A stretch of DNA of 64,000 nt, taken from Planctomycetota bacterium (lineage in GTDB: Bacteria > Planctomycetota > MHYJ01 > JACQXL01 > JACQZI01). The notes beneath the pieces were generated by a model, which had not been told where the DNA came from, did no database searches, and saw only the letters and a list, made by a program, of their open reading frames with translations. The stretch covers positions 1,122 through 65,121 of the forward strand of contig JACQZI010000005.1 in assembly GCA_016207825.1 (NCBI GenBank). The letters are read 5' to 3'. This document shows positions 2,523 to 43,540 of this stretch, piece after piece (position 1 is the first letter of the stretch; each line of letters opens with the position of its first letter). Position numbers and translations under genes: made by a program.

Positions 2523-2537
2523 AAATCACCTCCATTT

Positions 2538-2750
2538 TCATACGGCGGTTTTCTTCCAGTTCACTAAACAGCCATTTTTAAATAAATAATGTTCTTTGGA
2601 ATTAGTTTGCGGGAAGAGATAGATCCATTCTTCTGAAACAGGTTCAGAATCTTTCTTGGGTTTAAGCCATTTAGCCACGGGCTTGCCGCGTAATGCCATA
2701 ATATCATCAGTGGTCAGGGGAAGCATTTTGTTTAATGTTGTTTTATTCAT
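2538..2750 (-). CDS. Small conserved protein of 70 aa, family member 1. It shares the motifs LRGKPxAK…EEWxY…EHYxFxNxxLVxWKKTAV with ORF 43541 and lies between a sigma-54 promoter and a paralog gene.
   Basis: The ORF has a conserved paralog at 43541..43789 and a deletion remnant at 18017..18130. Confidence 0.5.
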   Translation of the reverse strand: MNKTTLNKMLPLTTDDIMALRGKPVAKWLKPKKDSEPVSEEWIYLFPQTNSKEHYLFKNGCLVNWKKTAV

Positions 2751-2865
2751 AACAGTTCTCCTTGTAAGTATATAAGTTGATACGATAATAAGTTTATAAG
2801 GAGCATAGCCTCGTATTAACTTATCACCTTATTTCATCACCTTATTTCTTATCAACTATAATGTA

Positions 2866-2883
2866 TAGCAAATATCGTGCCAA
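2866..2883 (-). promoter_or_regulatory. Sigma-54 (-24/-12) promoter TGGCACGATATTTGCTATA, driving 2750..2538 and 2522..186.
   Basis: Reverse complement of 2866-2883 is ttggcacgatatttgcta. GG and GC are 12 nt apart, matching the TGGCAC-N5-TTGCW consensus exactly. Three EBP genes lie nearby. Confidence 0.7.
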
Positions 2884-3007
2884 TAATTCGCAATAATGGA
2901 GGAGAACTATAAATTATTTAATGCCTTGTAAATAAAGGGGTTAGAAAGCGAAAACAAGTCAAATAAGAATGTTTTTTGTATAATGAGCGTGGTAAAAATT
3001 CACGCCG

Positions 3008-5035
3008 TTACCGTTTGGTAACATTAGAGATGGTTATCTTTAATTGTTTTATCTTTTTGGAAAGAGTTGAACGGTCGCTGTTAAGTTGACAAGCCGCTTT
3101 GGTGATATTTCCATTGTTCTTTTTAAGAACTTCTATAATAATACTCTTTTCTATTTCATTACGTAATTCTTTAAGAGGACTATCCGATTTGATAGCAGAT
3201 TGGTTCATATTAATGTAACTCCGGATTGGGTTAGATAGCATTGATTCTTCAATAACATTAACATCCGGATACAATGCGCAGATGCGTTTTATCTCGTTTT
3301 CTAGTTCGCGGATATTGCCGGGCCAGGGGTAGGCGGTGAAAAGCGCTAACGCGCTGGGGGATATGTCAGCCCCGACGTTCGTCGGGACTTCGCTTCGCTC
3401 CGGAATTTCCTTACGGGAAAGAGAGCATTTTCGTAAAAAATGCTGAGCGAGGATGGGAATGTCATCCCCGCGGTCGCGAAGAGGAGGAAGATTGATTATA
3501 ATAGTATTGATACGATAAAACAGGTCTTCCCTGAATAACTTCTGCTTAACCATCTGCTCAATAGTCTGATTAGAGGCAAAGACAAAGCGGGTATCAACCG
3601 GAATAGGTTTTTGTCCACCCACTCTCCAGAGAAGTTTTTCTTCCATAACCCTAAGTAATTTTTGTTGCATAGACGGAGACATATTAGAAATCTCGTCTAT
3701 GAAAAGCGTTCCGCCTGAAGCGAGTTCAATATAACCTTTTTTATCTTCTATAGCGCCGGTAAAAGCGCCTTTGGCATGGCCGAAAAGCGTACTTTCAACA
3801 AGCGTTTCGGGAAGCACCCCGCAATTGAACGGTAAATAGGATTTGTTTATACGCAGGCTATTATTATGTATGGCATTGGCAATAAGTTCTTTTCCGGTTC
3901 CTGTTTCTCCCTGGATTAAAACCGGCATATCCGTAGGAGAAATCTTTTCTATAAGATGATAAATTTCTTGCATTGAGGGGGAATTGCCGACAATGGTATA
4001 TTTATTAACCGAATTTTCGTAACGGTCATCAAGGGTTTGAACCAATATCTGCGGGATAAACCTGGATTCATGTTTGGTTTTACCCTGTAATTGTTGATAG
4101 AGCCTGTCAAATTCCCTGGTTTTTTCATACAGCCAAATCGTATCCAGTTTAGATAAAACAGGCTTTATCCTGTTTTCTATAGAGCTGGCTTTACGCGACA
4201 GCCCTTTAAGAGAATAGCATTTGCATAAAAGGAATCCGGCTTCACAGGCAAGGTTATTTAATTTCAAGCATAATGCTTCTTTCATTATGTCCGGCAAAAT
4301 CCGAAACGCGGAATCCAACTGGTTTTCCAAAAGGTCAATGGCAGCAAGATGTATTTTCGCTTCAAGGATGCCGCGCGGGAAATCCGCTTGCTCGCATGCT
4401 TTAAGGGATATCTGAAAAGACTGGCGTGCCTGGCGATAGTCTTTTATTGACATCAGATACTCGCCTTTAATGTGCATATAATCCATGAAGTATATCTCGC
4501 CGGACGGGGACAGCAGGGAAGGTGAAAGTTTTTGTTCAATAATTTGCCCTGCTTTCCCCAAATCGTTTTTATATAAATAACAATAAGCTAAATTAATCAG
4601 GGTCGAAACATACATTTCCTTATTCATTGGAAACGTGTAACTCGTGAGTTTTTGGCAGTATTGCTCTACTTTATGGAATTGGCTTAAAGCCTGATTGATA
4701 TGCATCATAACCAGGAAATTAAGCCCCATCTTAAACGAAGCATACGCGACGCGAACTTGTTCAAGATTATGTTTTGAAGCGGTTAAGTATGCTTTATAGA
4801 AAGCATCCAGCGAGCGGGCATATTCCGCAAGGCTAAAACAAGCAAATCCCAGATGGCAATATAAAAGGTGTTCTTCAAAAGGCGAATAAGAAAGGGAAGG
4901 GAGTTTCCTTAGCGCCTTTTCGCCCAAACGCTTGGCGTTATCCCAATCCTGTTTATCCAAGGCGGACCTAATTTGTTCCAGACAATCAGATAATGGTTTA
5001 GATTCTCTTCGTTCACTACGAGTGCGTTTTGGCAT
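3008..5035 (-). CDS. Sigma-54-dependent transcriptional activator (EBP) with an N-terminal TPR-like domain, a central AAA+ domain (GETGTGKE Walker A; GAFTGA) and a C-terminal Fis-type HTH. There is no receiver or GAF domain.
   Basis: Motifs are visible in the translation. The true start is probably the ATG (MPKRTRSE) at 5035, because the TTG of the ORF-track start lies inside the -35 box. Confidence 0.85.
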   Translation of the reverse strand: MPKRTRSERRESKPLSDCLEQIRSALDKQDWDNAKRLGEKALRKLPSLSYSPFEEHLLYCHLGFACFSLAEYARSLDAFYKAYLTASKHNLEQVRVAYASFKMGLNFLVMMHINQALSQFHKVEQYCQKLTSYTFPMNKEMYVSTLINLAYCYLYKNDLGKAGQIIEQKLSPSLLSPSGEIYFMDYMHIKGEYLMSIKDYRQARQSFQISLKACEQADFPRGILEAKIHLAAIDLLENQLDSAFRILPDIMKEALCLKLNNLACEAGFLLCKCYSLKGLSRKASSIENRIKPVLSKLDTIWLYEKTREFDRLYQQLQGKTKHESRFIPQILVQTLDDRYENSVNKYTIVGNSPSMQEIYHLIEKISPTDMPVLIQGETGTGKELIANAIHNNSLRINKSYLPFNCGVLPETLVESTLFGHAKGAFTGAIEDKKGYIELASGGTLFIDEISNMSPSMQQKLLRVMEEKLLWRVGGQKPIPVDTRFVFASNQTIEQMVKQKLFREDLFYRINTIIINLPPLRDRGDDIPILAQHFLRKCSLSRKEIPERSEVPTNVGADISPSALALFTAYPWPGNIRELENEIKRICALYPDVNVIEESMLSNPIRSYINMNQSAIKSDSPLKELRNEIEKSIIIEVLKKNNGNITKAACQLNSDRSTLSKKIKQLKITISNVTKR

Positions 5036-5042
5036 GGTTCCA

Positions 5043-5071
5043 TTTATACAAAAAGAAGGGGCGACTGTCAA
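5043..5071 (-). promoter_or_regulatory. Sigma-70-type promoter TTGACA-17-TATAAA, 7 nt upstream of the EBP ATG, giving a leaderless or near-leaderless transcript.
   Basis: Minus-strand reading: cTTGACAgtcgccccttctttttgTATAAAtggaaccATG. The same architecture occurs at the other two EBP genes. Confidence 0.55.
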
Positions 5072-5244
5072 GACCCGTTAGAGATTTTATTTAACTATTG
5101 TTTCTCATCAAAACAACTTTTAATAATAATGCTTCATTTTTCTCCTAAACCAAAACTCCAGCAAATTTCTAACGGGTCAAGTTCAAATTTAACAACCATA
5201 GGATTATATTGACGAAAACATTGCTTTTCTTATAATTAAACATA

Positions 5245-6564
5245 GTGAAATCTCAAAGGCTCATGACTGTCTACCGCGAGCGCGCCATACTGGTCGGAAC
5301 TATTTCTCCCCGACACTTTGGGCGGGACTCCACTTACGTTTCGCCTAAAGACCATCAGGAAGATGATCCGCTGGCCGAACTGGAGCAACTGGCTATTACA
5401 GCCGGCGCCATCGTTGTGGAAAAGATAACTCAGAAAAAGCAAAAGCCTGATGTCGCTTATTATATCGGCCGTGGCAAGGTCTCCGAACTAAAAGAATTAG
5501 CGGATAAAAACGATATCGATACAGTGATTTTTGATAACGACCTCTCGCCCGGACAGATACGTAACCTGGAAAACGAGCTGAAGATAAAAGTGCTTGACCG
5601 GACGGAACTTATCCTGGATATCTTCGTCACGCACGCCAGGAGTTTGCAGGCAAAACTGCAGGTGGAGCTTGCACAGCTTGAATACACGCTTCCCCGCTTA
5701 ACGCACCTGTGGTCACATCTTTCCAAGATTGAAGGAGGCGTCGGCATCGGTCAGAGGGGTCCGGGCGAAAAGCAGCTGGAAATGGACCGCCGCATCGCGC
5801 GCGACCGCATCACCAAGCTGAAACGGGAAATCGAGGATATCAACCAACACCACAAGCGCACCACGGAAAACCGCTCGTCTTATTTCAATATCGCCCTCTT
5901 AGGATACACCAACGCCGGCAAATCCGCCCTGATGAACGCCTTAACCGGCACGGATTGCCTGGTGGAAAATAAATTATTCTCCACTTTGGACACCAAAACC
6001 CAACTATGGAACCCGGCGAATCATTATAAAGTCCTTTTAAGCGATACGGTCGGTTTTATCCGCAATCTTCCACACCACCTGGTCGCCTCTTTTAACGCAA
6101 CTTTACAGGAAGTCATTGATGCGGATTTGCTCCTCCATATTGTGGATGTCTTTCAGCCGGGAATCGACCAGCGTATCCAGGCAGTTGATAAAGTATTGGA
6201 AGAACTCGGTTGCAGCCAGAAACCGCGACTCTTGGTATTCAATAAGATAGATAAAATAGACCCGCTTGAGATGCAGATAGTCAGCAAGGAATTCCCGGAT
6301 TCTGTTTTCATTTCGGCTAAAAATAAACAAGGGCTTGATGCACTCGCCGGAAGAATCGTGGAATTCATCGCCAAAGACGAAACACTATCGACATTCTCCG
6401 TTTCAGCCGGAGACGGCAAGTTCCTTTCTTATCTGGAAGAAATGGGCAATATCATTTCAAAAACGTACCGTGACGGAATGGTCCGGATAAAAATACGCCT
6501 GTCTCCGCATGCTAAGGCAAAAGTGATGGGTTATCTGGAAGCCAATAAAAACAAGGCTAAATAG
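5245..6564 (+). CDS. hflX: GTPase HflX
   Basis: G1 GYTNAGKS, G3 DTVGF and the HflX N-terminal domain are present. The start may be the ATG at 5263. Confidence 0.85.
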   Translation: MKSQRLMTVYRERAILVGTISPRHFGRDSTYVSPKDHQEDDPLAELEQLAITAGAIVVEKITQKKQKPDVAYYIGRGKVSELKELADKNDIDTVIFDNDLSPGQIRNLENELKIKVLDRTELILDIFVTHARSLQAKLQVELAQLEYTLPRLTHLWSHLSKIEGGVGIGQRGPGEKQLEMDRRIARDRITKLKREIEDINQHHKRTTENRSSYFNIALLGYTNAGKSALMNALTGTDCLVENKLFSTLDTKTQLWNPANHYKVLLSDTVGFIRNLPHHLVASFNATLQEVIDADLLLHIVDVFQPGIDQRIQAVDKVLEELGCSQKPRLLVFNKIDKIDPLEMQIVSKEFPDSVFISAKNKQGLDALAGRIVEFIAKDETLSTFSVSAGDGKFLSYLEEMGNIISKTYRDGMVRIKIRLSPHAKAKVMGYLEANKNKAK

Positions 6565-6582
6565 CCTGGCTTTTGGAAATGA

Positions 6583-7239
6583 TTACCGGTCGGTGTTTTC
6601 TGCCACCTGTCCCTGTTTCAGCTTTCTTCTCATTTCATCCCATGGAAAAAGCTTGCCAGGGCAATCTGTCTTGCCTTTATCAACGCTTGAATGACCTATG
6701 ATATTTTCTAAAGGAATATGGTAATCCCTCTGCAGCCTTTTCAGTAAATCATTCAACGCGCTCATTTGCGCCTTGGTCGGCTTGTCTTTCTCAAAATCTC
6801 CCACCAGGCAGATACCGATTGATTGCTCGTTCATGTTGGCGTCAAAGCAATGCAGCCCGGGAATCTTCCTAAACCAGCGCTCGCCCACCTCAACCTCGCC
6901 GTTCCCGGATTTGGTGCCGTTGCCGATGACGTAATGATAGGCCAACCCGTCCTTCATTTTCATTTCTTCCCTGTGGTAACGGTCAAATATCCTGGCATTG
7001 CCGCTTTTGGTCGAGCTGTGATGAATCACCACGTATTTCCAGGGAGAGGAACTTATTTGAGTTGACGTTACGGCCTCCGGTATTTCTATTTTCATCTGAC
7101 CTTCCGCGGTGGATTTCTTTTTACCGGTAAGTTCTTCAAATGAATCGTTGATGTTTTTATCCGTTGTGAAAAGATATGTAGCGACCAGGAGCGATACGAC
7201 CGCACCGATGCTGAGGATAAAATCAAATATCCTGACCAT
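6583..7239 (-). CDS. N-acetylmuramoyl-L-alanine amidase of the Amidase_2 / PGRP-like family, with an N-terminal TM anchor.
   Basis: Motifs YHYVIGNG, SIGICLVGDF and GHSSVDKGKTDCPG. Confidence 0.7.
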   Translation of the reverse strand: MVRIFDFILSIGAVVSLLVATYLFTTDKNINDSFEELTGKKKSTAEGQMKIEIPEAVTSTQISSSPWKYVVIHHSSTKSGNARIFDRYHREEMKMKDGLAYHYVIGNGTKSGNGEVEVGERWFRKIPGLHCFDANMNEQSIGICLVGDFEKDKPTKAQMSALNDLLKRLQRDYHIPLENIIGHSSVDKGKTDCPGKLFPWDEMRRKLKQGQVAENTDR

Positions 7240-7293
7240 ACGAATATCATATCGTCAAGACATGGGAAACATCTTTAATGATTTAAGAAATGC

Positions 7294-7704
7294 TTATAAC
7301 CAGTTTCGTATTTTTATTAAAGCGGCTTCATGAATTGTTTCTTCGGTAAGAATATTTTGGAGAATATTCCTAAGGTTGCTGTTCGAAGCCAACTTAACGC
7401 ATTTCTTATAAATCGAAATGGCTTTCTTTTCTGAAGCAAGATGGCTCCGGACGATTTCCGCCGGGGTTTTCATGCCTTCCGTAAATCCAAAGTCCCATTC
7501 AGCCGTTCCGCCCAACCGGCTGATTTCCAGCGAAACCAAATCAGCATGCCGGCTTTCCGCCTGCCCGAAATTGTGGAAAAGCTGGACCAGCCATGGATGT
7601 TTCGCGAAAGATGTGGCGTGCCTCGGATACAGGAAAATATCGCTGTATTCCATCCGCAAAGCCTTTTGCAGGTAGGTAACAAGTTTTTCCTTATTATCCG
7701 CCAT
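7294..7704 (-). CDS. Ferritin-like / rubrerythrin-like small protein
   Basis: Weak ferritin-like helical pattern with candidate E/H ligand residues. Low certainty. Confidence 0.35.
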   Translation of the reverse strand: MADNKEKLVTYLQKALRMEYSDIFLYPRHATSFAKHPWLVQLFHNFGQAESRHADLVSLEISRLGGTAEWDFGFTEGMKTPAEIVRSHLASEKKAISIYKKCVKLASNSNLRNILQNILTEETIHEAALIKIRNWL

Positions 7705-7707
7705 TTA

Positions 7708-7902
7708 TTATTGGATCTTAATCGCTTCAGCCGGGCATGATTCAGCTGCTTCCTTGCAGCAAGCTTCTGCGCTCGCCGGGACCGGATTAACCTTGACCTT
7801 GGCAATATCATCCGTTCCCATCTCAAAAACGTCAGGGCATGTTTCCACGCAAAGCCCGCAACTGGTGCATGCTTCTTTATCTACAATTGCTTTCATGTTC
7901 AT
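7708..7902 (-). CDS. 4Fe-4S ferredoxin
   Basis: CTSCGLCVETCP motif plus a second Cys cluster, in 64 aa. Confidence 0.8.
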   Translation of the reverse strand: MNMKAIVDKEACTSCGLCVETCPDVFEMGTDDIAKVKVNPVPASAEACCKEAAESCPAEAIKIQ

Positions 7903-8024
7903 TCTTCCTTTCTAAAATCTAATCAAATGCGTTAAAATTATATATTCCCTTAAATAAAGGGTCAAGGATTTTCACCACCCTATTTTTATAAATATCACAT
8001 CTGGAAATAGCCGATAATTACAAT

Positions 8025-8534
8025 ATGATTTACCTGCGTCTTCCCGGAATGCTGTTTATCATATTGTCCGTTATCGCGCCGGTATTGTATCTCAAATTCA
8101 GCGATTTGCACTTTTTCCAGCCTAAAGATTATCTGATGGTCGCGCTTACATTTGCCGGCTCCTTGACGTCCGGTATCTGCCTCTTGGTCCTGGCACAGTG
8201 GAAAAAGATGGCCCAGCCGATTCCCCCTCCACCTCCGTCTTCATATCCGCGGGTGGAATTCAAAAAGCCCGTGGTCCACAAAAAGGCATCCAGGCACAAT
8301 ATGAAACCGGCGACCGAAGCTGATTTTGTGGTTTTCTCAGATGATAACAAACCGGATTTCAATACCCTGATGGAGGATTTCAAGAATTATATTAAATTGG
8401 AAGCATGGGGAATGGCTCTAGCCAAGGCAAATGAAATACTGCATTATTATCCCGATAAGCCGGAAACCGCCAAGGTGCGCGCGAACCTTTCCTTCCTTAC
8501 CCAGCAGATAAAAAAAGAGTCACCGCAGGGATGA
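8025..8534 (+). CDS. Hypothetical membrane protein with a Pro-rich linker
   Basis: Two TM helices followed by PIPPPPPSS. Confidence 0.4.
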   Translation: MIYLRLPGMLFIILSVIAPVLYLKFSDLHFFQPKDYLMVALTFAGSLTSGICLLVLAQWKKMAQPIPPPPPSSYPRVEFKKPVVHKKASRHNMKPATEADFVVFSDDNKPDFNTLMEDFKNYIKLEAWGMALAKANEILHYYPDKPETAKVRANLSFLTQQIKKESPQG

Positions 8535-10673
8535 TTTCCTCATTATATCCTTTATCATCTCAGGCGTCAGCTTCAGTCTCTTAAGCTTTACGCCCTCATT
8601 CAATCTCAATGCCTGTTTGTAAGCCTCAAGCGCTGCCGGGATTTCATCAATCGCCTCAAGCGCTTTGCCAAGCCTATACATATATTCCGGCTTGGTCGGG
8701 TATAAAGAAACCGCATTACTGAAACATTCCGCGCTTTCCTTTAGCCTCTCATCTCGCCGGCGCATGAAAGAAACCTTTTGCGCGATATCCGATTCTGTTT
8801 TAATCCATTCCGCTAACATCTCCGCATCCTCCTGCAGAAACGTCCCTTTCATAAAATAAAGCGAGGCGGAAAACGGGCTTAGTTCTATTGCCTTATTAAT
8901 ATATCCATAAATAACTTTCTGCCATACGTCAAACCTTACTTTTTCCGGCTTATTAACCATATGTAAAAAAGGAGCCATTACTAGATTCGGCCTGATATCC
9001 CAAGTATTACTCTCCAACGCCATGGCTAACTTTTTTCCCGCTTCCACCCTGCCGGATATCAATTCTTCCTGGCTCATATCAATCATATAATCAACCAATA
9101 TCAACCTCGGCACAAGCCACAGGTTCACCAGAAAAACTATGGCAAGTGCGACTGCCAATACCGTTGCCTTAAGCACGAAACCGGTTTTGATGATATGCTC
9201 TTTACTTTTAAATACCAGCCCCACCAGCAATCCCCCGGCCAGCCAGATGCTCATGGAAAGCCCGGCCTCGGAGAAGTTAAAATCAACCAAACTATGCAAA
9301 AGGAATCCGCAAATCCCGGCAATCAATCCCGTAATGTAATAATTAGTGATGGGTATCCTATATATTAAAAGGAAAGAAACCAGCCAGATGATAAAGAATA
9401 CAGCCAACCCTATTTCCGGGATATCCGATATGGCAAAGACTCCCTGAAATGCCTGTGCCAATAAGAATGCAACGAACGCCCCTATGATAACGCCTACCAC
9501 CACACCTTTTCCCTCTCCCCCTCTGGGAGATGCCGGGAGAGGGGTATTTTCCTCTGTTTTAAGATTGTTTATCCCCTTAAACCCGCGGATAAGGATAATA
9601 AGCCAGATAGTGCAAAAAGTTATAATGCCGATAATTCCCAATTCGGAAAACACTTCCAATAAAACATTATGCGCCGTAGTCGTTTCCCCTGCCCAGACCG
9701 GCTTATACATCGTATAGGGGTCGGCGAAGTTGGACAGCCCCACCCCGGTCCATAAATTATTCTTAATCACCCCCCAGGCGCCTTGCCAGTAGCCGAACCG
9801 GGTTTGCATAGATTCGTTCCCCCAAAGTGCCCAGAATAATACCGCCAGCCCGATAATCACAACAGGCGGCACGATAAAACGCAACGGTTTATTGAATCGA
9901 TTCCACAACGCGATTGTAAACAATAAGATAATGCTTATGAGGGCCGCCACCCAGGCGCCTTTTGCGCCCGTTGAGTAAAGAATGAAGCTCATAAGGACAA
10001 GCAATAACCAATAACCAATTACCAATTTCCAATTACGTTTAAGAAACGAATAGATGGAACACGCTAAAAAAATCGGGATAACCAAAACGAGAAATCCACC
10101 CAAAGAGTTCTGGTAGATAAAAGTCCCGAAAGGCTCGTTGGCATTGACGCGTGACATGAATTCTTCCTCTAATTCCTGCGGGACACTCGTCCCTCCTGAG
10201 GAATTCGCAATAATCGTTTGTCTCATCTCCTCCAATCCCCAGAGATACTGGTAAAGGGCGAAACAAACTATCACCGCTCCGGTCGCCAGGAAAACACCGC
10301 TTATTAGACGAACAACTGACAACTGATAACTGACAACTCCCATTACGAGTTGTATGACCAGATAAAACAGCATTATATCGCCCAGCCAGATAAAAGCCGT
10401 GCCGAATGCCGCGAATTTGTATCCTGCCCATAAAGGCGAAAGGATAATCGTTATAGCCCAGACCAAAAGCAATCCGCCCAAGCCCAAAAGATTAATCAGC
10501 CTAAGCTCACCTGAAAACGCCTGATAAACCAGACGAATAAGAAAGGCAATAATGATAAAAGAAGTGATAAAGATATTCACTCCGGTTCCGGCAGTGCTCC
10601 CGCAGACCAGGAGTTTTAGGACTATGGCGCAGCTCAAAAGCCCCAAGACCAATAGATGAAAAATACGTGCCAT
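8520..10673 (-). CDS. Polytopic membrane protein of the O-antigen ligase (Wzy_C)-like family, with a C-terminal TPR domain.
   Basis: About 12 TM helices followed by a soluble TPR-like C-terminus. This architecture is common in O-antigen ligase family proteins. Confidence 0.45.
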   Translation of the reverse strand: MARIFHLLVLGLLSCAIVLKLLVCGSTAGTGVNIFITSFIIIAFLIRLVYQAFSGELRLINLLGLGGLLLVWAITIILSPLWAGYKFAAFGTAFIWLGDIMLFYLVIQLVMGVVSYQLSVVRLISGVFLATGAVIVCFALYQYLWGLEEMRQTIIANSSGGTSVPQELEEEFMSRVNANEPFGTFIYQNSLGGFLVLVIPIFLACSIYSFLKRNWKLVIGYWLLLVLMSFILYSTGAKGAWVAALISIILLFTIALWNRFNKPLRFIVPPVVIIGLAVLFWALWGNESMQTRFGYWQGAWGVIKNNLWTGVGLSNFADPYTMYKPVWAGETTTAHNVLLEVFSELGIIGIITFCTIWLIILIRGFKGINNLKTEENTPLPASPRGGEGKGVVVGVIIGAFVAFLLAQAFQGVFAISDIPEIGLAVFFIIWLVSFLLIYRIPITNYYITGLIAGICGFLLHSLVDFNFSEAGLSMSIWLAGGLLVGLVFKSKEHIIKTGFVLKATVLAVALAIVFLVNLWLVPRLILVDYMIDMSQEELISGRVEAGKKLAMALESNTWDIRPNLVMAPFLHMVNKPEKVRFDVWQKVIYGYINKAIELSPFSASLYFMKGTFLQEDAEMLAEWIKTESDIAQKVSFMRRRDERLKESAECFSNAVSLYPTKPEYMYRLGKALEAIDEIPAALEAYKQALRLNEGVKLKRLKLTPEMIKDIMRKSSLR

Positions 10674-10846
10674 GATGGCTATAGTATAGATATTTTCCCC
10701 CTGTCTTCAAGTAAAATACTTCACCGGCTGTTAAACGGCCCCAACAGAATACTTTTTAACCCATAACTAATTTAACTTTAAACTCCGGTAAATTATTGAC
10801 ATTTCCGCTAACAATGATATCTTACCGTAAAAAGATTGGATAAACC

Positions 10847-11808: not shown

Positions 11809-11820
11809 ATATTATAGCTT

Positions 11821-13548
11821 ATGTTGCATACTAGAATGATAACACCCCTATCAAAGATAAATCTCTTTATCAAAGGAAGGGCAAACTGGTTTACAATAGC
11901 GCTCTTTTTTTTATTATTAAGCATCATCAGTTTTGGTATTAGCGGTTTTTGCAATAAATATGAAGGAAATGAAACCGAAGTCGGAAGCAGCGGGATAAGC
12001 CAGATTACTTCGCCTGCACCGCCCGGCGGAACGGTTGATATCCCGATTACCGCCACACTCTCGTGGGAAATTGTTCCCGGTGCAACTCATTATGCGGTTT
12101 ATTTCGGTTTAACTACGGACGGCTTGAGCCCGGTTACAAATACGATGTTGACTAATTATGAGCCGGGAATTCTTGAATATAACACTACTTATTACTGGCG
12201 GGTAGATCCTAATAACATTAATCAGGTTGTCATCGGACAATTGTGGTCTTTTACTACGATGGCTCAAGCAACAAATTCTCCGCCGCAGGCAAACACTCCC
12301 AATCCGGCAAATGGCGCCACTAATATTCCAGCTGCCTGCCAGCTTTCCTGGGCTGCGGCAACCGGGACGAATTCTTATACGATTTATTGCGGAACATCCT
12401 CTCCTCCTCCCTTAGTAACAACCTCCACAGTAACAGCTTATCATCCGGGTATTCTTGCCTACAACACCACCTATTACTGGCGGATAGATTCCAATAATAA
12501 CGCTGGGACCACCCAGGGAGTAGTATGGAGTTTTAAAACCAAAGCACCGCCGGTAAATCCGCCAGCTCAGGCAACAAATCCAACGCCGGCGAATGGCGCA
12601 ACGAATATTATTGCAAATACCCAACTATCATGGGCTATGGCCACCGATGCCACTTCTTATGACGTGTATTTCGGAACAGTTAACCCGCCGCCGCTCAAAA
12701 TAACCACCCTTGACACAACCTATAACCCGGGAACGCTTAATAATAATACCGCTTATTATTGGCGGGTAAATTCCAAGAATATCGTCGGAACCACCCAGGG
12801 AGCAGTATGGAACTTTACCACACGGGCACAAGAAACCGCTCCCAATCCGCCATCCGGATTAACGGCTACGGCATTATCATCTTCCCAGGTGGTCATCTCC
12901 TGGACCGATAATTCCGGCGATGAAACCGGCTTTATCGTGGAACGCAAAACCGGTCCCGCCGGCACATATGCGGTAATTACCACTCTGCCTGCAAATACCG
13001 GTGTGTACACGGATATCAGCGCAGCGCCCTTCACCACCTACTATTACCGGCTGGCGGCATGCAATGCCTCAGGAAATAGCGCTTATTCCAATGAAGCTTC
13101 TGCCGTCACTTTCAACCGGATTGCTTCCGGCACTATGGTCCTGCAGTGGAAAGCCGAAGGCGACAATCTCAGAATCAGGGTCAGCGCACCGGCTACCGGC
13201 TGGATCTCTGTCGGGTTTGACGCGACTAATAGGCATCAGGACGCAAATATCATCATAGGTTACATCAGTAACGGCAGGCTGTTTATCCAAGACGATTACG
13301 GCACAGGCTCCACCACCCACTCCTCCGATATTTCGCTGGGCGGGACCGATAACATCACGGAGAAAACCGGCGCCGAAGCCAACGGGACCACCGAACTGGT
13401 TTTTACGATTCCGCTTAATTCAGGCGATTCACGCGATAAACCGCTCGTTGTCGGCAATAGTTATAATGTAATACTGGGTTACGGCAACACGGATAATTTT
13501 ACCGGCATGCATGCGTTCGCTAGAACTATAAATATAAAGATTCAATGA
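11821..13548 (+). CDS. Exported protein with three Fn3-like repeats of about 90 aa (…ATxYxVYFGT…YYWRV), one canonical Fn3, and a C-terminal DOMON-like domain.
   Basis: The C-terminal 170 aa are paralogous to the C-termini of 13577 and 15147. The start codon is uncertain because the sigma-54 transcription start site abuts the ATG. Confidence 0.55.
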   Translation: MLHTRMITPLSKINLFIKGRANWFTIALFFLLLSIISFGISGFCNKYEGNETEVGSSGISQITSPAPPGGTVDIPITATLSWEIVPGATHYAVYFGLTTDGLSPVTNTMLTNYEPGILEYNTTYYWRVDPNNINQVVIGQLWSFTTMAQATNSPPQANTPNPANGATNIPAACQLSWAAATGTNSYTIYCGTSSPPPLVTTSTVTAYHPGILAYNTTYYWRIDSNNNAGTTQGVVWSFKTKAPPVNPPAQATNPTPANGATNIIANTQLSWAMATDATSYDVYFGTVNPPPLKITTLDTTYNPGTLNNNTAYYWRVNSKNIVGTTQGAVWNFTTRAQETAPNPPSGLTATALSSSQVVISWTDNSGDETGFIVERKTGPAGTYAVITTLPANTGVYTDISAAPFTTYYYRLAACNASGNSAYSNEASAVTFNRIASGTMVLQWKAEGDNLRIRVSAPATGWISVGFDATNRHQDANIIIGYISNGRLFIQDDYGTGSTTHSSDISLGGTDNITEKTGAEANGTTELVFTIPLNSGDSRDKPLVVGNSYNVILGYGNTDNFTGMHAFARTINIKIQ

Positions 13549-13576
13549 GCTTTTTTAAGCAGAAAGGATTCTCGGC

Positions 13577-14353
13577 ATGAAAAAGATATTAGTGGTTTTA
13601 GGCTTGCTGGCATTACTCGCCCAGTCCGTATCGGCAGATGAAGCAGAAAACGCGCCATCCGAATTAACGGCAACTTCCTTATCTTCTTCCGAGGTCGTTA
13701 TCTCTTGGTCGGATAATTCCTCTGATGAAACCGGCTTTGTCATCGAACGCAAAACTGCTGTCACCGGCACTTATGCGGCGATTGTCACAACGACCGCCAA
13801 TACGACCGTTTATACCGATACCGCGCTGTCATCATTCACCACGTATTATTACCGCCTCTCGGCAGTTAATGACACGGAAACGAGCGCCTATTCCAATGAG
13901 GTTCCTGCCGTTACATTCAACCGGACGACTGCCGGTGATATGGTTCTGCAGTGGAAAGCCGAAGGCAATAATCTCAGAATCAGGGTCAGCGCACCGACTG
14001 CCGGCTGGGTTGCAGTCGGTTTTAAAACTGCCGCGGGCAAAAAGGACGCTAATATCATCATGGGATACGTTAAAAAGAACGGGGTATTTATCGAGGATAA
14101 TTACGGCATAGGCGCCACGAACCACGCCGCCGATACTGCCGGGGGAGGAACCGATAACGTCACGGAGAAAACCGGCACCGAAGCCAAAGGGACCACCGAA
14201 CTGGTTTTCACTATCCCGCTCGATTCCGGCGATGACCGGGATAAAAAACTCGTCGTCGGCAATACCTACAATACGATGCTGGCTTACGGCAAAACGGATA
14301 ATTTTACCGGCATGCATACGTTTTTCAGGGTCATAAAGATAAAAATCCAATGA
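13577..14353 (+). CDS. Exported Fn3 plus DOMON-like domain protein
   Basis: Signal peptide; paralog of the C-terminal half of 11821. Confidence 0.6.
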   Translation: MKKILVVLGLLALLAQSVSADEAENAPSELTATSLSSSEVVISWSDNSSDETGFVIERKTAVTGTYAAIVTTTANTTVYTDTALSSFTTYYYRLSAVNDTETSAYSNEVPAVTFNRTTAGDMVLQWKAEGNNLRIRVSAPTAGWVAVGFKTAAGKKDANIIMGYVKKNGVFIEDNYGIGATNHAADTAGGGTDNVTEKTGTEAKGTTELVFTIPLDSGDDRDKKLVVGNTYNTMLAYGKTDNFTGMHTFFRVIKIKIQ

Positions 14354-15132
14354 TAAAAAAAATATTGCCTATCTTGCTCCTGGTTGGATTAATTATCCTG
14401 CCGGTCTTGGCGGATGAACCGGAAGAGGAGACGGAAGAAGAATCCCTGGAATATGTTTATTTTCCTTCAGAAATGATTAACCTGAAAATGCCCAACCAGC
14501 AGGAGCCGCATTCGCTGATTTTCATCATCACGCACCGCTTCTACGGTGAGTTAAACCATAACCCCATGGAAACCGCCAACCTCTTATTCGGCATTAAATA
14601 TATCGCTTCTCCCAAGGTGGAACTGGAAGCGCTCTACGGAATGAACCAGAATGAATACAGCATCGGCGCCGGTTATTATTTCCTGAACTCAGGGATTATA
14701 CACGGCCAATTCAATGCCACCCTTTTTGATTATAAGGACATTGCCTTTGAAGAAAGAAGCATCAATGCTTTTTACCAGCTCTCTATGGATACCAAGCCGC
14801 TTTTCAAGCATGTTACGCCGGTGGTTAATGCCGGTTATGACGGCTACTATGAAAGGTTCGGCTACGGCTTCGGCTTAAAAATAGCTTTCAATATCGCGAA
14901 CTCAACGGTAAAAAAAGTAAACATCATCAGCGAATATTATCCTATTACGGATCCCGAAGCAGGAATCACCCAGCCCAAGCCGGTCTCCTGTTTCGGCATC
15001 GGCATAGATACCTTCCGGCACAATTTTGTCCTCCAGGTGACTAACGGCAACGAAGCGGGTGTCAGGCGGCTTATGCTGGGCGCGCCTGACGACGAGCTTC
15101 ACTTCGGTTTTAATATACTCGTGAAATTCTGA
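14350..15132 (+). CDS. Putative outer-membrane beta-barrel protein
   Basis: Signal peptide, alternating amphipathic strands and a C-terminal …ILVKF. Confidence 0.45.
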   Translation: MIKKILPILLLVGLIILPVLADEPEEETEEESLEYVYFPSEMINLKMPNQQEPHSLIFIITHRFYGELNHNPMETANLLFGIKYIASPKVELEALYGMNQNEYSIGAGYYFLNSGIIHGQFNATLFDYKDIAFEERSINAFYQLSMDTKPLFKHVTPVVNAGYDGYYERFGYGFGLKIAFNIANSTVKKVNIISEYYPITDPEAGITQPKPVSCFGIGIDTFRHNFVLQVTNGNEAGVRRLMLGAPDDELHFGFNILVKF

Positions 15133-15146
15133 AAGGATGGCGTGGC

Positions 15147-15683
15147 ATGAAAAAAATAGTATTGGCTCTTTTCTGTCTGGCAATAATGGCAATCAATAAT
15201 GGTTTCAGTTGCAATACCCACGACGAACAGGTGTCATCCGGCTCTTCCGGCGCCGCCGTAGGACAGGTGACGGCCGCGGGTGTTACCATGAAGTGGTCTG
15301 TGGTGGGAACCGATTTATCCGTAACACTCAGCGCCCAGACTGCCGGCTGGGTCGCGGTCGGGTTTAACCCTACCAACAGGCACCAGGGCGCCAATATTAT
15401 CATCGGCTATGTCAGCGGAGGCGTGGCATTTATCGAGGACAACTTCGGCAACGGCCCTACCACCCATGTTACCGATGGAATCCAAAACGTTACGGAAAAA
15501 ACCGGGACCGAGGCCGGCGGCATTACCGAAATAAGTTTTAAAATACCGCTTAATTCCGGCGACGCCCAGGACCAGCCGCTGGTTGTTGGGACCAACTGCA
15601 CGATAATATTGGCTTACGGTCCGGCGGATAATTTCACCACCCAACACACCAGTATGGGGACTGCGCTTATCAGAATCCAATAA
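15147..15683 (+). CDS. Lipoprotein with a DOMON-like domain
   Basis: Lipobox GFSC; paralog of the 13577 C-terminus. Confidence 0.55.
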   Translation: MKKIVLALFCLAIMAINNGFSCNTHDEQVSSGSSGAAVGQVTAAGVTMKWSVVGTDLSVTLSAQTAGWVAVGFNPTNRHQGANIIIGYVSGGVAFIEDNFGNGPTTHVTDGIQNVTEKTGTEAGGITEISFKIPLNSGDAQDQPLVVGTNCTIILAYGPADNFTTQHTSMGTALIRIQ

Positions 15684-15710
15684 TCCAGGCGATGATTTCC
15701 CGTTTACTAC

Positions 15711-15738
15711 TTGACAATCACCCATTTTTTCTATATAA
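15711..15738 (+). promoter_or_regulatory. Sigma-70-type promoter (TTGACA…TATATAA) for the EBP gene, with a short leader.
   Basis: ttgacaatcacccattttttctatataaccaatatcATG. Confidence 0.5.
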
Positions 15739-15746
15739 CCAATATC

Positions 15747-17771
15747 ATGAAAACCGGAAAGCCTCTATCCGACCAGCCCGACAGCCTGCCTGCCGGAAAG
15801 GCAGGTCTGGCGGGTTACCTGGAACAAATCAAATCCGCCAATACCAAACAAAACTGGATTCAAGTAAAGCGCCTGGGGAAAATCGTTTTAAAAAACCTGC
15901 CTAATCTGGCTTATTCTCCATCCGAAGAATATCTTTTGTTTCGCCGGCTGGGTGTCGCCCATTATCATTTGGCGGAATATTCAAACTCCCTGGACTTTTT
16001 CTACAAAGCATTCCTGGCCGCCTTCAGGCATAAACTCAACCAAGCCGATATCGCCTGCGCGATTTTTATGATGGGAAGCAATTTTATCGCTATCAGGAAT
16101 ATACCGCAAGCCCTGGCTCATTTCCAGAAAGTGGAAGAATACTATAAAAAATACGGGGATAATAATCCTCCGATGGATAAAGATATCTATATTGATACGC
16201 TTTTAAGCCTGGCGTATTGTTATCTATATAAAAATGATACGGAAAAAGCACGTGAGATTATAGAAGAAAAACTTTCTGTTTACCGGCCGGACGCGTTTGA
16301 CGGAATCAGCTTTATAGATTACACCCACCTTAAAGGGGAATATCTGGCGGCAGCCGAAAAATACGCCGATGCCCGTAAATGTTTTGACGAATGTATCACG
16401 ATGGGAAAACAAATTAACTTCCCGGTAAGCATCCTCGAAGCAAAAATACACCTGGCCCTAATTGATATCATGGAAAGCGAAACAGATAGCGGCATCCAAA
16501 CCTTGCGCGCCGTAATGAAAGAAAGCCGGAAGTTAAAGCTAAACGACCTCTTCTGTGAATCAGGGCTCCTTTTAAGCAAATGTTACATCATTCAAGGTCT
16601 TCCCGATAAAGCCGTGCTTATCGAAAACAGGATTAAGCTTAATTTGTCCAAACTTGACACGGTTTGGCTCTATGAAAAAATGCGCGAGTTCGAAAAACTC
16701 TACCGCCAATTAACCACCGTATCGAAAGTCAAATCGCAAATCGCTCCCGAAATACTCGTTCGCACCCTTAATTCACGTTATGAAAAATCACCCCATAAAG
16801 AAATTGTCATAGGCGTCACTCCCTTAATGCAGGAAATCTGGCAACTGTTAGAAAAAATTGCTCCGACCGATTTGCCCGTTTTAATCCAGGGGGAAACCGG
16901 CACGGGAAAAGAACTCATCGCCCGCGCTATCCACCAAAACAGCCTGCGGGCATCCCGTTCCTGCCTCGGATTTAATTCCGGAGCGGTTGCCGAAACTCTT
17001 TTGGAAAGCACGCTTTTCGGCCATGCCAAAGGCGCTTTTACCGGCGCTATTGAAGAGAAAAAAGGCTATATTGAACTCGCCTCCGGCGGAACGCTTTTCG
17101 TGGATGAGATTGCCAATATGTCGCTTGGTATGCAGCAAAAACTTCTAAGGGTCATGGAAGAAAAACTTCTCTGGCGTGTCGGTGACTCAAAACCAATTCA
17201 GATAGATACCCGTTTTATCTTTGCCAGCAATCAGGATATTGAGCAGATGGTCAAGAACAAAACCTTCCGTGAAGACCTGTTCTATCGTATCAACGCCATT
17301 GTAATTAACCTTCCGCCTCTGCGCGAACGCGGGGATGACATTCCCTTGCTGATAAACCACTTCCTCTCCAAATATAAAACGCATGACGCCCAACGCATGA
17401 CGCAAGACTCACAACGCATAACGCCCGACGCACAACGCCTCCTCTCCTCCTACCCCTGGCCCGGCAATATCCGCGAACTGGAAAACGAGATAAAACGTAT
17501 CTGCGTATTATACCCAAATGCAAAAACCATCGAAGAACCAATACTCTCAGATTCAATCAGAAATTATAAAAAAACGCCCGAACCGTTTAAACAAATCTTG
17601 AACATGAAAGAAGCAACTGATGCCTTCCAAAGGAGCCTTATCATCGAAACGATTAGCCAATGCCAGGGCAATATGACCCAAGCCGCCCGCCAGCTCGGCT
17701 ATGCGCGCCAAAGCCTTTACGATAAAATGAAACAGCTTAAGATAACTCCGGAAACTGTCGTGAAAAAGTAA
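15747..17771 (+). CDS. Sigma-54-dependent activator (TPR-AAA+-HTH), paralog 2
   Basis: GETGTGKELIARAIH, GAFTGA and a C-terminal HTH. An (AQRxT)n low-complexity linker lies between the AAA+ and HTH domains. Confidence 0.85.
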   Translation: MKTGKPLSDQPDSLPAGKAGLAGYLEQIKSANTKQNWIQVKRLGKIVLKNLPNLAYSPSEEYLLFRRLGVAHYHLAEYSNSLDFFYKAFLAAFRHKLNQADIACAIFMMGSNFIAIRNIPQALAHFQKVEEYYKKYGDNNPPMDKDIYIDTLLSLAYCYLYKNDTEKAREIIEEKLSVYRPDAFDGISFIDYTHLKGEYLAAAEKYADARKCFDECITMGKQINFPVSILEAKIHLALIDIMESETDSGIQTLRAVMKESRKLKLNDLFCESGLLLSKCYIIQGLPDKAVLIENRIKLNLSKLDTVWLYEKMREFEKLYRQLTTVSKVKSQIAPEILVRTLNSRYEKSPHKEIVIGVTPLMQEIWQLLEKIAPTDLPVLIQGETGTGKELIARAIHQNSLRASRSCLGFNSGAVAETLLESTLFGHAKGAFTGAIEEKKGYIELASGGTLFVDEIANMSLGMQQKLLRVMEEKLLWRVGDSKPIQIDTRFIFASNQDIEQMVKNKTFREDLFYRINAIVINLPPLRERGDDIPLLINHFLSKYKTHDAQRMTQDSQRITPDAQRLLSSYPWPGNIRELENEIKRICVLYPNAKTIEEPILSDSIRNYKKTPEPFKQILNMKEATDAFQRSLIIETISQCQGNMTQAARQLGYARQSLYDKMKQLKITPETVVKK

Positions 17772-17896
17772 CACCTGTCAGATTTCCCTGACACCACCCG
17801 TCAAAACTAATTCATACTATATTTGCTCTTTCAGCCTAACTCCTTTATTCATATCAAATTAGGGCTTGTCGGTATTTCTCTGTTTTTAGGCATTTC

Positions 17897-17912
17897 TGGC
17901 ACGATATTTGCT
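17897..17912 (+). promoter_or_regulatory. Sigma-54 promoter TGGCACGATATTTGCTATA
   Basis: Identical to the promoter at 2866..2883 and marks the start of a roughly 400-bp inverted duplicate. Confidence 0.7.
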
Positions 17913-18016
17913 ATACATTATAGTTGATAAGAAATAAGGTGATAAGTTAATACGAGGCTATGCTCCTTATAAACTTATTATCGTATCAACTTATATACTT
18001 ACAAGGAGAACTGTTA

Positions 18017-18130
18017 TGAATAAAACAACATTAAACACCTGTCTCGGAAGAATGGATTTATCTCTTCCCGCAAACTAATTCTGAAGAGCATTATTTCTTT
18101 AAAAATGGCTGTTTAGTGAGCTGGAAGAAA
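18017..18130 (+). pseudogene. Deletion remnant of the small conserved protein gene. MNKTTLN joins out of frame to …EWIYLFPQTNSEEHYFFKNGCLVSWKKTAV.
   Basis: The DNA is nearly identical to 2750..2538 except for an internal deletion of about 100 bp. Confidence 0.6.
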
Positions 18131-18157
18131 ACCGCCGTATGAAAATGGAGGTGATTT

Positions 18158-20485
18158 ATGCGTAACACGAAAGTTTGCGAAGCGAAGTGCGAAACGACAG
18201 TGGAGTCCCGACCTAATCGGGGTAGTCCCGACGCACGTCGGGGGAATTTTGGATTTTGTGTATTATTAATTATTTGGAGCTTGGGTTTTGGTGCTTGGGA
18301 TTTGTGTGCGGACTCCTGGTCCCAGACCACCTTTACCGATGGGACATTTAATAGCACGATGAGCGCTACCAGTGGCAGCGATGTAAGTCTTTTTGTATCC
18401 ATTGATGCTGGTAATGGCACGGATGGTGCAATAACCGTTGCCGCGGCAAAAAATATTAATACGGATACCATTGCCGCCGGCAGGACTGTCGCCGATGGCT
18501 GGAACTCACGCGTTTCCGCCCTTACGGCAAATACAGCTACATTAGTAACCACACCTCCTGTTAATACTTTTGCAGTCGGTGACGAAGTTATTTTAATCAG
18601 TCTCAAAGGCATCTCTGCGGCTTATGGTAATGTTGGATTATATGAATTCCTTCGTGTCCAGTCAGTTGCTGGTAATATAATTACCTTTACCGCCAATAAA
18701 ATTAACTGGTACGGTGATGGCGCTAATGATACCAATGTCGGAACAAATCAAGTCGTGATGCTCCAGCGGGTGCCTAATTATACTGATGTAACGATTAATA
18801 TCGGCGGCTCACTTGCCTGTTCGGCTTTTGATGGGACAAAGGGAGGGATTCTTATCGTTAAAGCTACCGGAACAGTTACGGTAAATGCGCTGAATGGTAT
18901 AAATGCGAGTGACCGCGGATTTAGGGGCGGCGTTGGAGGCGGTTACTCCAGTCGTTCGGGTGGTGGTGAGTCATATAATGGCACGGGTGGTGCCGGTGGT
19001 GTAAATGGAGATGGATATAGTCCTCGTAGCGTTGGTTTAGCGGGTCAATCCGGCCAAGGTGGCGGTGGCGGCGCTGGTGCGTATGATAGTACTCTTGGTA
19101 CTGCAGCCGCTGGCGCGCTTGGTTCAGGTGGTGGTGCTGGCGGCGGCAGTGGTTACTACTCCAGTAACGATATTGGTGGTGGTGGCGGCGGCGGCGGTAA
19201 TGGAGGAACAGGCGGTGGCGGCGTGGGTGGCGGAGGTACGGCCGGGGCTGGTTCAGGAACTAACGGTGGTAATGGTAGTGCGGGGGTGGGTACCCGCTCT
19301 GCCGGTGGCGGCGGCGGCGGTGGGAACGATGGTCGGGCAGATTCTTCCGGGCTGGGTAATCGGGCATATATGGGTGGCGGTGGTGGTGCCGGTGGCGGCG
19401 GTTTTGAAGGTACGACATCTACCGCCGGACAACCCGGAGGCAATGGCGGAGGTATAATATTTATCTGTGCTAATAATATTAACGTTGCCTCAGGTGCATC
19501 TATTGCCGCAAATGGAGCAAACGGAGGAGCTGTCGGCACCTATGTAGGTGGTGGTGGCGGTGGGGCTGGTGGTTCTATAATTCTGAACTCAATCAGCGTG
19601 TCTAATTCAGGTTCCGTCACTGCTATTGGCGGTTCAGGAGGTTCCAATGCTCTTTCCGGCGGCGCGGGTGGTGGTGGTCGAACATATGCTCGGTATGTGG
19701 CTTTCAGCGGCACTGCACCAACCCCAAATTACTCAAGTGGAAATCCATCATCATATACTACTGCCGGCACCTATGTTTCATCGCTGATTAATTTGACTGG
19801 TCTTTCCTCTTGGGGTATTTTAACCTATACACGAACCGCTCCGGCAAATACCACCTTTACAGTTGACGTCTTAAAGGCCATAGATAATTCCATCCTGGTT
19901 TCTAACGTTGCTTCCGGCGTTAATCTTTCATCGGTTCTTCCATCGCCGTTATGCTATGCCATCAGGCTCCGGGCTAACTTTTCTACTTCAGATAATACCC
20001 AAACCCCGACCCTTTCTGACTGGGGAATAAACTACACAAGCGGCGGGACGACCATCACCACCACCAACTGGACGGATTTGGTTAACGGGCAATCCGTCCG
20101 GATGGGACAATCTATCGCCCACGTTAAATTTGAAATGAAAACATTTGATGGCACTGCCCGCTGGAGACGTTTCCGTATCGATAAAGGATTAAAAACATAC
20201 ACAAACCTTGCCTGCCCGGATTCTAAAATAGAAGTTCAGGTCTGGTGCGATACAAATGCCAATGGTTTCTGGGATACCGGCGATACGTTCATCGCTAAAG
20301 GCAATTTTACCAACGGCACGTGTTATCTCAATATGAAACAATGGCAGGTAACGACTACCACCAAGACTTATTATATCGTGTATAAATTAGCCAGTGATAT
20401 CAGCGGCGGCACCCGCGCCGGGGTGAAGATAGCGGATAGCAGCTATCTTGAATTTGAAAATGCCACTTGTATCGGAGTGCCATAA
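18158..20485 (+). CDS. Exported paralog 2: a leader identical to paralog 1 plus an 11-codon hairpin-element insertion, a Gly-rich central region (GGGxGG runs, probably beta-helix) and the conserved C-terminal module.
   Basis: The N-terminus MRNTKVCEAKC…RRGNFGFCVLLIIWSLGFGAWDL matches ORF 186..2522. The C-terminal 300 aa align with 48731, 50696 and 53061. Confidence 0.65.
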   Translation: MRNTKVCEAKCETTVESRPNRGSPDARRGNFGFCVLLIIWSLGFGAWDLCADSWSQTTFTDGTFNSTMSATSGSDVSLFVSIDAGNGTDGAITVAAAKNINTDTIAAGRTVADGWNSRVSALTANTATLVTTPPVNTFAVGDEVILISLKGISAAYGNVGLYEFLRVQSVAGNIITFTANKINWYGDGANDTNVGTNQVVMLQRVPNYTDVTINIGGSLACSAFDGTKGGILIVKATGTVTVNALNGINASDRGFRGGVGGGYSSRSGGGESYNGTGGAGGVNGDGYSPRSVGLAGQSGQGGGGGAGAYDSTLGTAAAGALGSGGGAGGGSGYYSSNDIGGGGGGGGNGGTGGGGVGGGGTAGAGSGTNGGNGSAGVGTRSAGGGGGGGNDGRADSSGLGNRAYMGGGGGAGGGGFEGTTSTAGQPGGNGGGIIFICANNINVASGASIAANGANGGAVGTYVGGGGGGAGGSIILNSISVSNSGSVTAIGGSGGSNALSGGAGGGGRTYARYVAFSGTAPTPNYSSGNPSSYTTAGTYVSSLINLTGLSSWGILTYTRTAPANTTFTVDVLKAIDNSILVSNVASGVNLSSVLPSPLCYAIRLRANFSTSDNTQTPTLSDWGINYTSGGTTITTTNWTDLVNGQSVRMGQSIAHVKFEMKTFDGTARWRRFRIDKGLKTYTNLACPDSKIEVQVWCDTNANGFWDTGDTFIAKGNFTNGTCYLNMKQWQVTTTTKTYYIVYKLASDISGGTRAGVKIADSSYLEFENATCIGVP

Positions 20486-43503: not shown

Positions 43504-43540
43504 ATATATAATGTATATATCAATAACGAAAGGATAGCAT

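Follow-up and report, generated by a model that had tools for sequence, protein, structure and literature searches.

The stretch analyzed here, hereafter the window, comprises 64,000 nucleotides of a Planctomycetes bacterium (locus tags HY811_) taken from one short-read metagenome-assembled genome (MAG) of a groundwater sample. It contains two related sigma-54 modules, at 186-5071 and 15711-20485, which lie back to back and are transcribed outward, and which share around their promoters a near-identical inverted patch whose origin is the subject of this work. As predicted from the sequence, such a module is composed of a TPR-type sigma-54 activator, an upstream motif, a core promoter, a small protein of ~70 aa, and one or more secreted paralogs. 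A first inspection of the letters, referred to as the sequence-only reading, had described the two modules as mirror images, and this layout is borne out over their entire length.

In the left module, the activator gene EBP-L (P0064; 3008-5071, minus strand) is an open reading frame (ORF) of 687 aa, or 675 aa according to NCBI, whose product has a TPR-like N-terminus, an AAA+ Sigma54_activat domain (E = 4e-65), a GAFTGA motif, and a Fis-type HTH (HTH_8). Its counterpart in the right module, EBP-R (P0068; 15711-17771, plus strand), has 674 aa according to NCBI. The secreted paralog of the left module (778 aa; 186-2522, minus strand) has a signal peptide, RCC1 repeats, a He_PIG Ig domain (Pfam matches RCC1, WD40_RLD, and He_PIG), a C-terminal domain of ~150 aa, and a strong ribosome-binding site (RBS), GGAGGTGA. 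The right paralog (775 aa; 18158-20485, plus strand) is Gly-rich and AgmC_N-like, carries the same C-terminal domain, and retains its own RBS; a further paralog with Laminin_G_3 and DUF2341 domains comes after it (20467-23004, plus strand). The small gene is intact in the left module (an ORF of 70 aa; 2538-2750, minus strand) and belongs to an unannotated conserved family. A third module in direct orientation (41333-45702, plus strand) was used as an internal outgroup and consists of the activator gene EBP-3 (41333-43360, plus strand), a small gene of 82 aa (43541-43789, plus strand), and then secreted genes. Pfam recognizes Sigma54_activat in all three window activators (E = 1e-63 to 1e-65), and GAFTGA is present in their translations.

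The patch consists of a left arm (2363-2882, minus strand; 520 nt), which runs from the -24/-12 core through the 5' leader and the small gene to about codon 53 of the paralog, and a right arm (17897-18350, plus strand; 454 nt). The near-identical inverted match is real, since an inverted-repeat search, self-BLAST, and a MAFFT alignment all show it, and base-level alignment gave 23 mismatches in 421 aligned columns, i.e., 94.5% identity. Run over positions 1-22000, the inverted-repeat search resolved the arms into the collinear pairs 2829-2901/17878-17950, 2729-2835/17931-18037 (107 nt, 100%), 2491-2643/18037-18189 (153 nt, 95%), and 2363-2491/18222-18350 (129 nt, 88%), with fainter pairs reaching 193-450/20224-20481. 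The 107-nt pair is the longest indel-free stretch common to both copies. The extent of the arms had been understated, as homology at 88% reaches ~100 nt deeper into the paralog gene, to 2363/18350. On the promoter side, the sharp onset of identity claimed for the -24 box is confirmed: it falls on the T of TGGCACGATATTTGCT (2882/17897), and the 100 nt located 5' of the -24 are only 54-58% identical between left and right. A 47-mer starting at the -24 occurs exactly twice in the 64 kb vs 0 times expected by chance.

Three indels separate the arms. The left 5' leader carries a tandem duplication of the 13-bp unit GAAATAAGGTGAT (2823-2848, minus strand), of which the right leader has one unit, and the right paralog carries a 33-bp in-frame insert (18189-18221, plus strand) encoding ETTVESRPNRG in the n-region of its signal peptide; both had been described correctly. 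The deletion reported in the right small gene exists as well, but it measures 86 bp (one base is ambiguous) and shifts the frame, instead of being ~100 bp long. The missing segment corresponds to 2644-2728 (minus strand) of the left gene and encodes the conserved LPLTTDDIMALRGKPVAK half, so the right remnant (18016-18142, plus strand) has 127 nt vs 213 nt. The ATG frame of the remnant ends after 20 codons, at 18078; the frame is lost in its 3' half (18038-18142), which has 8 differences from the left copy, 5 synonymous and 3 non-synonymous. Since the loss removes the N-terminal half and shifts the frame, the right module has lost its small gene, in agreement with the ongoing decay that had been postulated for it; and because the small gene belongs to a real conserved family, the loss is the derived state.

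The surroundings of the patch tell of a much older relationship. EBP-L and EBP-R share 57% amino acid identity, and their synonymous divergence (dS) is 1.5 overall, with ~3 for the TPR part against 0.9 for the AAA+ core. For the C-terminal domain shared by the flanking paralogs, dS is 1.4. In sliding windows, nucleotide identity is 55-88% along the activator genes and 54-58% in the last 200 nt before the -24, jumps to 94-100% from 2882/17897, falls to 83-88% in the signal peptide and first mature residues, is random in the cargo, and returns to 82-87% in the last 300 nt. Because the flanks have a dS of ~1.5 while the patch is 94-100% identical, the modules are old paralogs holding a young conversion tract, and not a recent duplication in decay as the sequence-only reading had proposed.

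The differences that remain inside the patch are not spread evenly. The first 146 aligned columns, counted from the -24 T, are free of mismatches (P ~0.001 by permutation if the 23 mismatches were uniform), and even at the best background identity, 0.88, a perfect run of 146 nt has a position-corrected probability of ~4e-5. Eight of the 10 mismatches found up to 2434 are packed into 78 nt (2560-2637) of the 3' half of the small gene (P ~0.004); after this island come two blocks without differences, 68 and 48 nt long and split by two changes in a hairpin, and past 2434 the arms diverge by 18%. Thus, the tract is far more alike than the homologous flanks on either side of it, and its leftover differences form a non-uniform mosaic, both of which are marks of gene conversion. 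We infer that the probable origin of the patch is ectopic gene conversion, recent and mosaic, between two sigma-54 modules that are themselves old paralogs.

Purifying selection would be an alternative source of the identity, if promoter, leader RNA, small protein, and signal peptide had all had to stay exactly alike in both operons ever since the old duplication, and it can be judged by comparison with related modules, namely the third window module and the loci L002 (JGI 3300038466), L003, L007 (Logan SRR12113406), L008, and L009/L010. In L002, L007, L008, and L009/L010 the activator is followed by the upstream motif, TTGGCACGATATTTGCTATA, a 48-54-nt leader, and then the small gene. The core and the upstream motif are indeed kept in all modules and across genomes, as selection would predict, but when the promoters are aligned, those of the third module, the DOMON operon (see below), L002, L003, L007, L008, and L009 share with the arms just these two elements. 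The conserved core of the third module and of the other Planctomycetes metagenome modules spans 16-20 nt, and the long leader of the arms (~105-118 nt, AT-rich, 100% identical between left and right) is unique to them, the short leaders of the other modules being unrelated to it. Since the other modules lack this leader, constraint does not account for the 100% identity of the leader and of the synonymous sites. A long imperfect hairpin can be drawn in the leader, which would fit a functional RNA, but its folding energy does not stand out (z = -1.6) and Rfam gave zero matches. Moreover, the ~110-nt leader and the synonymous sites of the patch are fully identical next to activator genes that are saturated at synonymous sites, and the small gene, broken in one of its copies, is therefore not under selection. 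Purifying selection is, therefore, a highly improbable account of the patch.

Under gene conversion, RecA-type homologous recombination between the two loci would have copied about 350-420 nt from one module to its counterpart, in a tract spanning from the -24/-12 core, which was already identical, to the conserved coding region for the signal peptide and N-terminus. Heteroduplex would have extended up to the core as an anchor and halted at the non-homologous DNA upstream; identity would start at the -24 because the ~20-nt core is the sole sequence 5' of the small gene that all modules already had in common. At the far end, the tract would fade within the signal-peptide/N-terminal region of the paralogs, which is ~75-82% conserved among them (e.g., 50717-50809 vs 2375-2468), so neither boundary would involve a special site. 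The alternation of a clean run, an island of differences, and identical blocks would reflect patchy mismatch repair or several events, and the three indels, one of which inactivated the right small gene, would be later than the conversion or would have been spared by it. The same repeats may also support reciprocal exchange, that is, an inversion of 2.9-17.9 kb. The process is a known one and the patch is a new example of it, but it offers a clean natural case of a short conversion tract whose upstream end lies at a conserved promoter core, and with that end regulatory and coding DNA have been homogenized together between paralogous operons. The expanded module and its unannotated small protein are the more unusual biology.

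Several points weigh against this interpretation. It rests on one genome and one short-read MAG assembly, either module may have been the donor, and a double reciprocal exchange could account for the pattern as well. No strain- or species-level relatives of the locus, by which the event could be dated or its starting state recognized, were retrieved in the genome and metagenome scans and look-ups: an alignment of the small protein found zero relatives among species-representative genomes, EBP-L as query against a genome collection found relatives only at up to 47-48% identity, and metagenome scans with a 33-nt patch sequence and with the alignment A1 gave zero matches. The closest foreign activator to EBP-L (P0065) is 62% identical.

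The dependence on a single assembly leads to the suspicion of an artefact, in which the assembler or polisher would have copied one locus into the other or misjoined contigs at the shared repeat, so that the near-identity or the inverted layout would be spurious. The source is, after all, a short-read metagenome bin, and another paralog of the same MAG (P0153, annotated as partial) stops at a contig edge, so such repeats do break assembly. The only independent check came from the O-antigen-ligase-like gene, the sole exact-protein look-up to yield a contig; those with HflX gave no record, and the independent Logan assembly likewise has no record of EBP-L, EBP-R, either flanking paralog, or the small gene in complete form. 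The contig so found (Logan L001) is 100% identical to the window over 5157-13727 and thus reproduces the inner 8.6 kb base for base, but it ends before both arms, which consequently rest on one assembly. The public run SRR12113406 and sister runs of its project contain the population studied here, at 100% identity. Within the arms, however, three indels and 23 substitutions are interleaved with identical blocks, none of them longer than 107 nt and all below a typical 150-nt read, so that the markers can be phased. Interleaved differences and blocks shorter than a read mean that the assembler could keep the copies apart, and the two copies were in fact resolved separately. This, together with the exact match of the inner 8.6 kb, makes an artefact very unlikely.

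Because the patch has been homogenized, the two loci have recombined recently, and the question arises of what such recombination would do to the DNA between them. The arms enclose ~15 kb with 12 genes. The intervening segment (5245-15683) contains hflX, an Amidase_2 gene, genes for a ferritin-like protein and a ferredoxin, a gene for a 169-aa protein without assignment, a Wzy_C/TPR gene, a gene for a 217-aa membrane protein, and a DOMON operon in the order DOMON/fn3, DOMON/fn3, DUF5777, and DOMON. A comparable situation is that of the inverted tufA and tufB genes of Salmonella, which co-evolve by RecA-dependent gene conversion; in as many as about half of these events the DNA between them is inverted (PMC5485169, PMC6735719, citing Hughes 2000). 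The likeness lies in inverted paralogous stretches on one chromosome that are far more alike than their surroundings, in mosaic conversion tracts arising from mismatch repair, and in the fact that inversion re-pairs promoters with downstream genes. The tuf genes differ in being ~1.2 kb long, nearly all identical, and essential, whereas here ~0.35-0.42 kb have been homogenized, and the tract takes in a promoter core and leader, along with a small gene that is dispensable and a signal peptide, instead of a whole conserved gene. By this analogy, and given arms that are inverted, of RecA length, and recently recombined, inversion of the 15 kb, which the sequence-only reading had put forward, appears mechanistically possible, and the arms mark a spot where it would be easy. 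That inversion heterogeneity is detectable in the population has, in our estimation, only a small chance of being true.

A stronger claim would be that the arms work as an inversion switch, recombination between them flipping 2.9-17.9 kb and giving two subpopulations in which the RCC1 operon and the Gly-rich/LamG operon have exchanged activator gene and upstream region. The repeats do offer 146 mismatch-free columns and 107 nt of uninterrupted identity, the recent conversion proves that the loci interact physically, and conversion and inversion are coupled in the tuf system (PMC5485169, PMC6735719). In addition, since identity starts at the -24, a crossover would cleanly exchange all DNA located 5' of the core promoter. 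The arms have nevertheless gathered indels and a pseudogene, which speaks against selection for the repeat as such, an inverted pair is absent at five other module loci (L002, L007, L008, L009/L010, and the third window module), and the MAG records one orientation only. Programmed invertons and shufflons (fimS, Hin, the capsule promoters of Bacteroides) have repeats of ~10-30 bp, small segments, and a site-specific recombinase nearby. The arms resemble them in that inverted repeats flank DNA whose flip would re-pair a promoter or regulator with genes, but at 454-520 nt they are far longer, the ~15-kb segment is far larger, and it contains 12 unrelated genes, some of them housekeeping (hflX, amidase, ferredoxin). 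Furthermore, Pfam detected no serine or tyrosine recombinase, integrase, or transposase among the ORFs of at least 110 aa of the 64 kb. A working switch is hence unlikely. The fuller scenario, in which a recombination-driven regulatory swap keeps both wirings in the population, within an undescribed expanded module with possible small-protein feedback, we regard as decidedly unlikely. GC skew was also considered as a trace of inversion and discarded: it is negative over 5-18 kb, yet uninformative because GC3 skew is gene-specific (e.g., -0.3 in all paralogs on the coding strand).

The small protein whose gene lies within the patch is conserved well beyond the window. A profile built from three members recovered 62 representative clusters at E <= 1e-3, 44 of them at E <= 1e-10, and the members of these clusters are 47-109 aa long, except for one multi-repeat protein of 2,851 aa. 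The family alignment shows two motifs, PPLTxxDIxxLRGKPxAK and EEWIYY...KExYxFKNGxLxGW. The small protein has zero Pfam or NCBIfam matches and no signal peptide. Its AF2 model (pLDDT 84) consists of one helix and a four-stranded sheet, and Foldseek matched it at TM 0.55-0.68, with weak E values of 0.08-0.3, to BLIP, to a BLIP-like protein, and to OsmE, a lipoprotein of the BamE family; the modeled fold may thus be of the BLIP/OsmE(BamE) type. Outside the window, small genes were located in L002 (720-929), L007 (7514-7741), L008 (12276-12533), and L009 (7343-7564 and 7591-7803), the gene being duplicated in tandem in L009/L010, and in L003 the small ORF has decayed. At every small-gene locus examined, the small gene is the first one after the sigma-54 promoter that adjoins the TPR-type activator. 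The small protein may act as a feedback partner of the activator; if true, this would be a new regulatory motif. In L009 (6421-7136) and L010 (4132-4847), the activator gene is separated from the sigma-54 promoter by an inserted HEPN/nucleotidyltransferase toxin-antitoxin pair.

The sigma-54 core TGGCAC-N5-TTGC noticed in both arms is well founded, given that the window contains 5 matches to TGGCAY-N5-TTGCW vs 0.17 expected, with canonical spacing of the -24 GG and the -12 GC. The predicted cores of the arms, both TGGCACGATATTTGCT, lie at 2867-2882 (minus strand), with a 125-nt spacer from EBP-L, and at 17897-17912 (plus strand), and the same pattern scan placed that of the third module, TGGCACGTTATTTGCT, at 43488-43503 (plus strand). 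Another predicted core, an identical 16-mer having TTGGCACGATATTTGCTATA in common with the arms, lies at 11793-11808 (plus strand) before the DOMON operon, where there is no small gene. It would serve the DOMON/fn3-DUF5777 operon, with EBP-R directly after, and the annotated ATG at 11821 leaves almost no leader. The upstream motif, CCTTxxTTxxCAAGGCrTTA in the modules from other samples and (C)CTTxxTTTAyAAGGCrTTA over all of them, is partly palindromic (CCTT..AAGG) and lies ~45 nt before the -24 in all modules, including those of other genomes, although the right module has only a degenerate copy. Its copies are at 2917-2937 (minus strand) and, on the plus strand, at 17834-17855, 43435-43460, and 11745-11765, and in other genomes at ~7392-7415 of L007, ~12152-12175 of L008, and ~7215-7240 of L009. 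It is a candidate activator-binding site or IHF-type bending site. A search with 6-nt seeds found no palindromic activator sites 5' of the promoters, scans for sigma-70 promoters and terminators gave counts near chance, and there is no rpoN in the 64-kb window.

The activators themselves resemble those of the NtrC family in the TGGCAC-N5-TTGC core and in the adjoining Sigma54_activat protein with GAFTGA and a Fis-type HTH. They differ in that the sensor part is TPR-like, instead of a receiver, PAS, or GAF domain, in their expansion, with three in the window and four on one contig of 319,762 bp, and in the unannotated ~70-aa protein encoded after each promoter. The family is much expanded, with 89 matches at E < 1e-100, mostly 45-62% identical and several per contig. 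P0075, P0078, P0084, and P0110 are those that share the 319,762-bp contig, while P0064, P0068, and P0092 are on the source contig of 201,771 bp; the activator of L007 is P0075, and NCBI places it on that 319,762-bp Planctomycetes contig. What emerges is an uncultured Planctomycetes lineage with many copies of one module, made of an activator, a near-invariant promoter, a small protein, and secreted proteins.

The secreted proteins of these modules carry interchangeable cargo between a common signal peptide and a common C-terminal domain. Seven paralogs in the 64 kb share this ~150-aa domain (186-677 on the minus strand, 19994-20482, 22513-23001, 45211-45699, 50105-50593, 52493-52981, and 54849-55340), with 59-75% identity to the left copy and a mean column identity of 74%. 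Among their cargo types are RCC1, Gly-rich AgmC_N-like, LamG plus DUF2341, and DUF4082. An exchange of cargo domains between the paralogs of the two arms, which had been suggested as a consequence of the repeats, is not evidenced, as the RCC1/He_PIG and Gly-rich AgmC_N-like cargoes are unrelated. The C-terminal domain has zero Pfam or NCBIfam matches and just 7 database matches. Its AF2 model, of low confidence (pLDDT 59), is a beta-sandwich that matches C-CPE and collagen-binding domains at TM 0.3-0.4, a likeness that is suggestive at best.

Haft et al. reportedly described in 2006 PEP-CTERM/exosortase paralog families under a sigma-54 activator. The present proteins share with them the many secreted paralogs, the variable cargo, the shared terminal region, the sigma-54 regulation, and the TPR proteins. 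However, they end in ...SSYLEFENATxIGVP, without a terminal transmembrane helix or basic tail, and their shared C-terminal region is a ~150-aa domain predicted to be a beta-sandwich. With no such motif and no NCBIfam match to PEP-CTERM, assignment of the paralogs to that system was ruled out.

The 33-bp insert of the right paralog duplicates, in diverged form, a small hairpin unit (..AGTCCCGAC-loop-TCGGGG); its hairpins form, but their energy is not better than that of shuffled sequences. A hairpin element of ~30 nt, GCGAAGCGAAGT(GTA)GTCCCGACGnACGTCGGGG, occurs in the variable linker of EBP-L (3362-3401, minus strand) and in the paralog n-regions (2470-2501, minus strand; 18178-18243, plus strand). 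It is read in different frames depending on the site, forms two tandem units in the right paralog, and is lacking in the paralog at 50684-52984. The 20-mer of the hairpin core has 4 matches vs 0.01 expected, the palindromic EBP-L site being counted twice, once per strand. These sites suggest a very small palindromic element able to enter tolerant coding regions without breaking the reading frame.

Other repeats accompany the paralogs elsewhere in the window. Tandem arrays of a 63-bp unit lie at 23106-23427 and 45825-46044, just 3' of the paralogs 20467-23004 and 44353-45702; the units are 82-90% identical within and between arrays and translate to QNLCPQGQ-like repeats that start ORF 45824-47086. 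Two pairs of near-identical 33-bp elements were also found, at 28814-28846/37465-37497 and at 43822-43854/55355-55387 (97% direct, 94% inverted). The latter pair is a GC-rich hairpin located 3' of the small gene of the third module and 3' of the last paralog.

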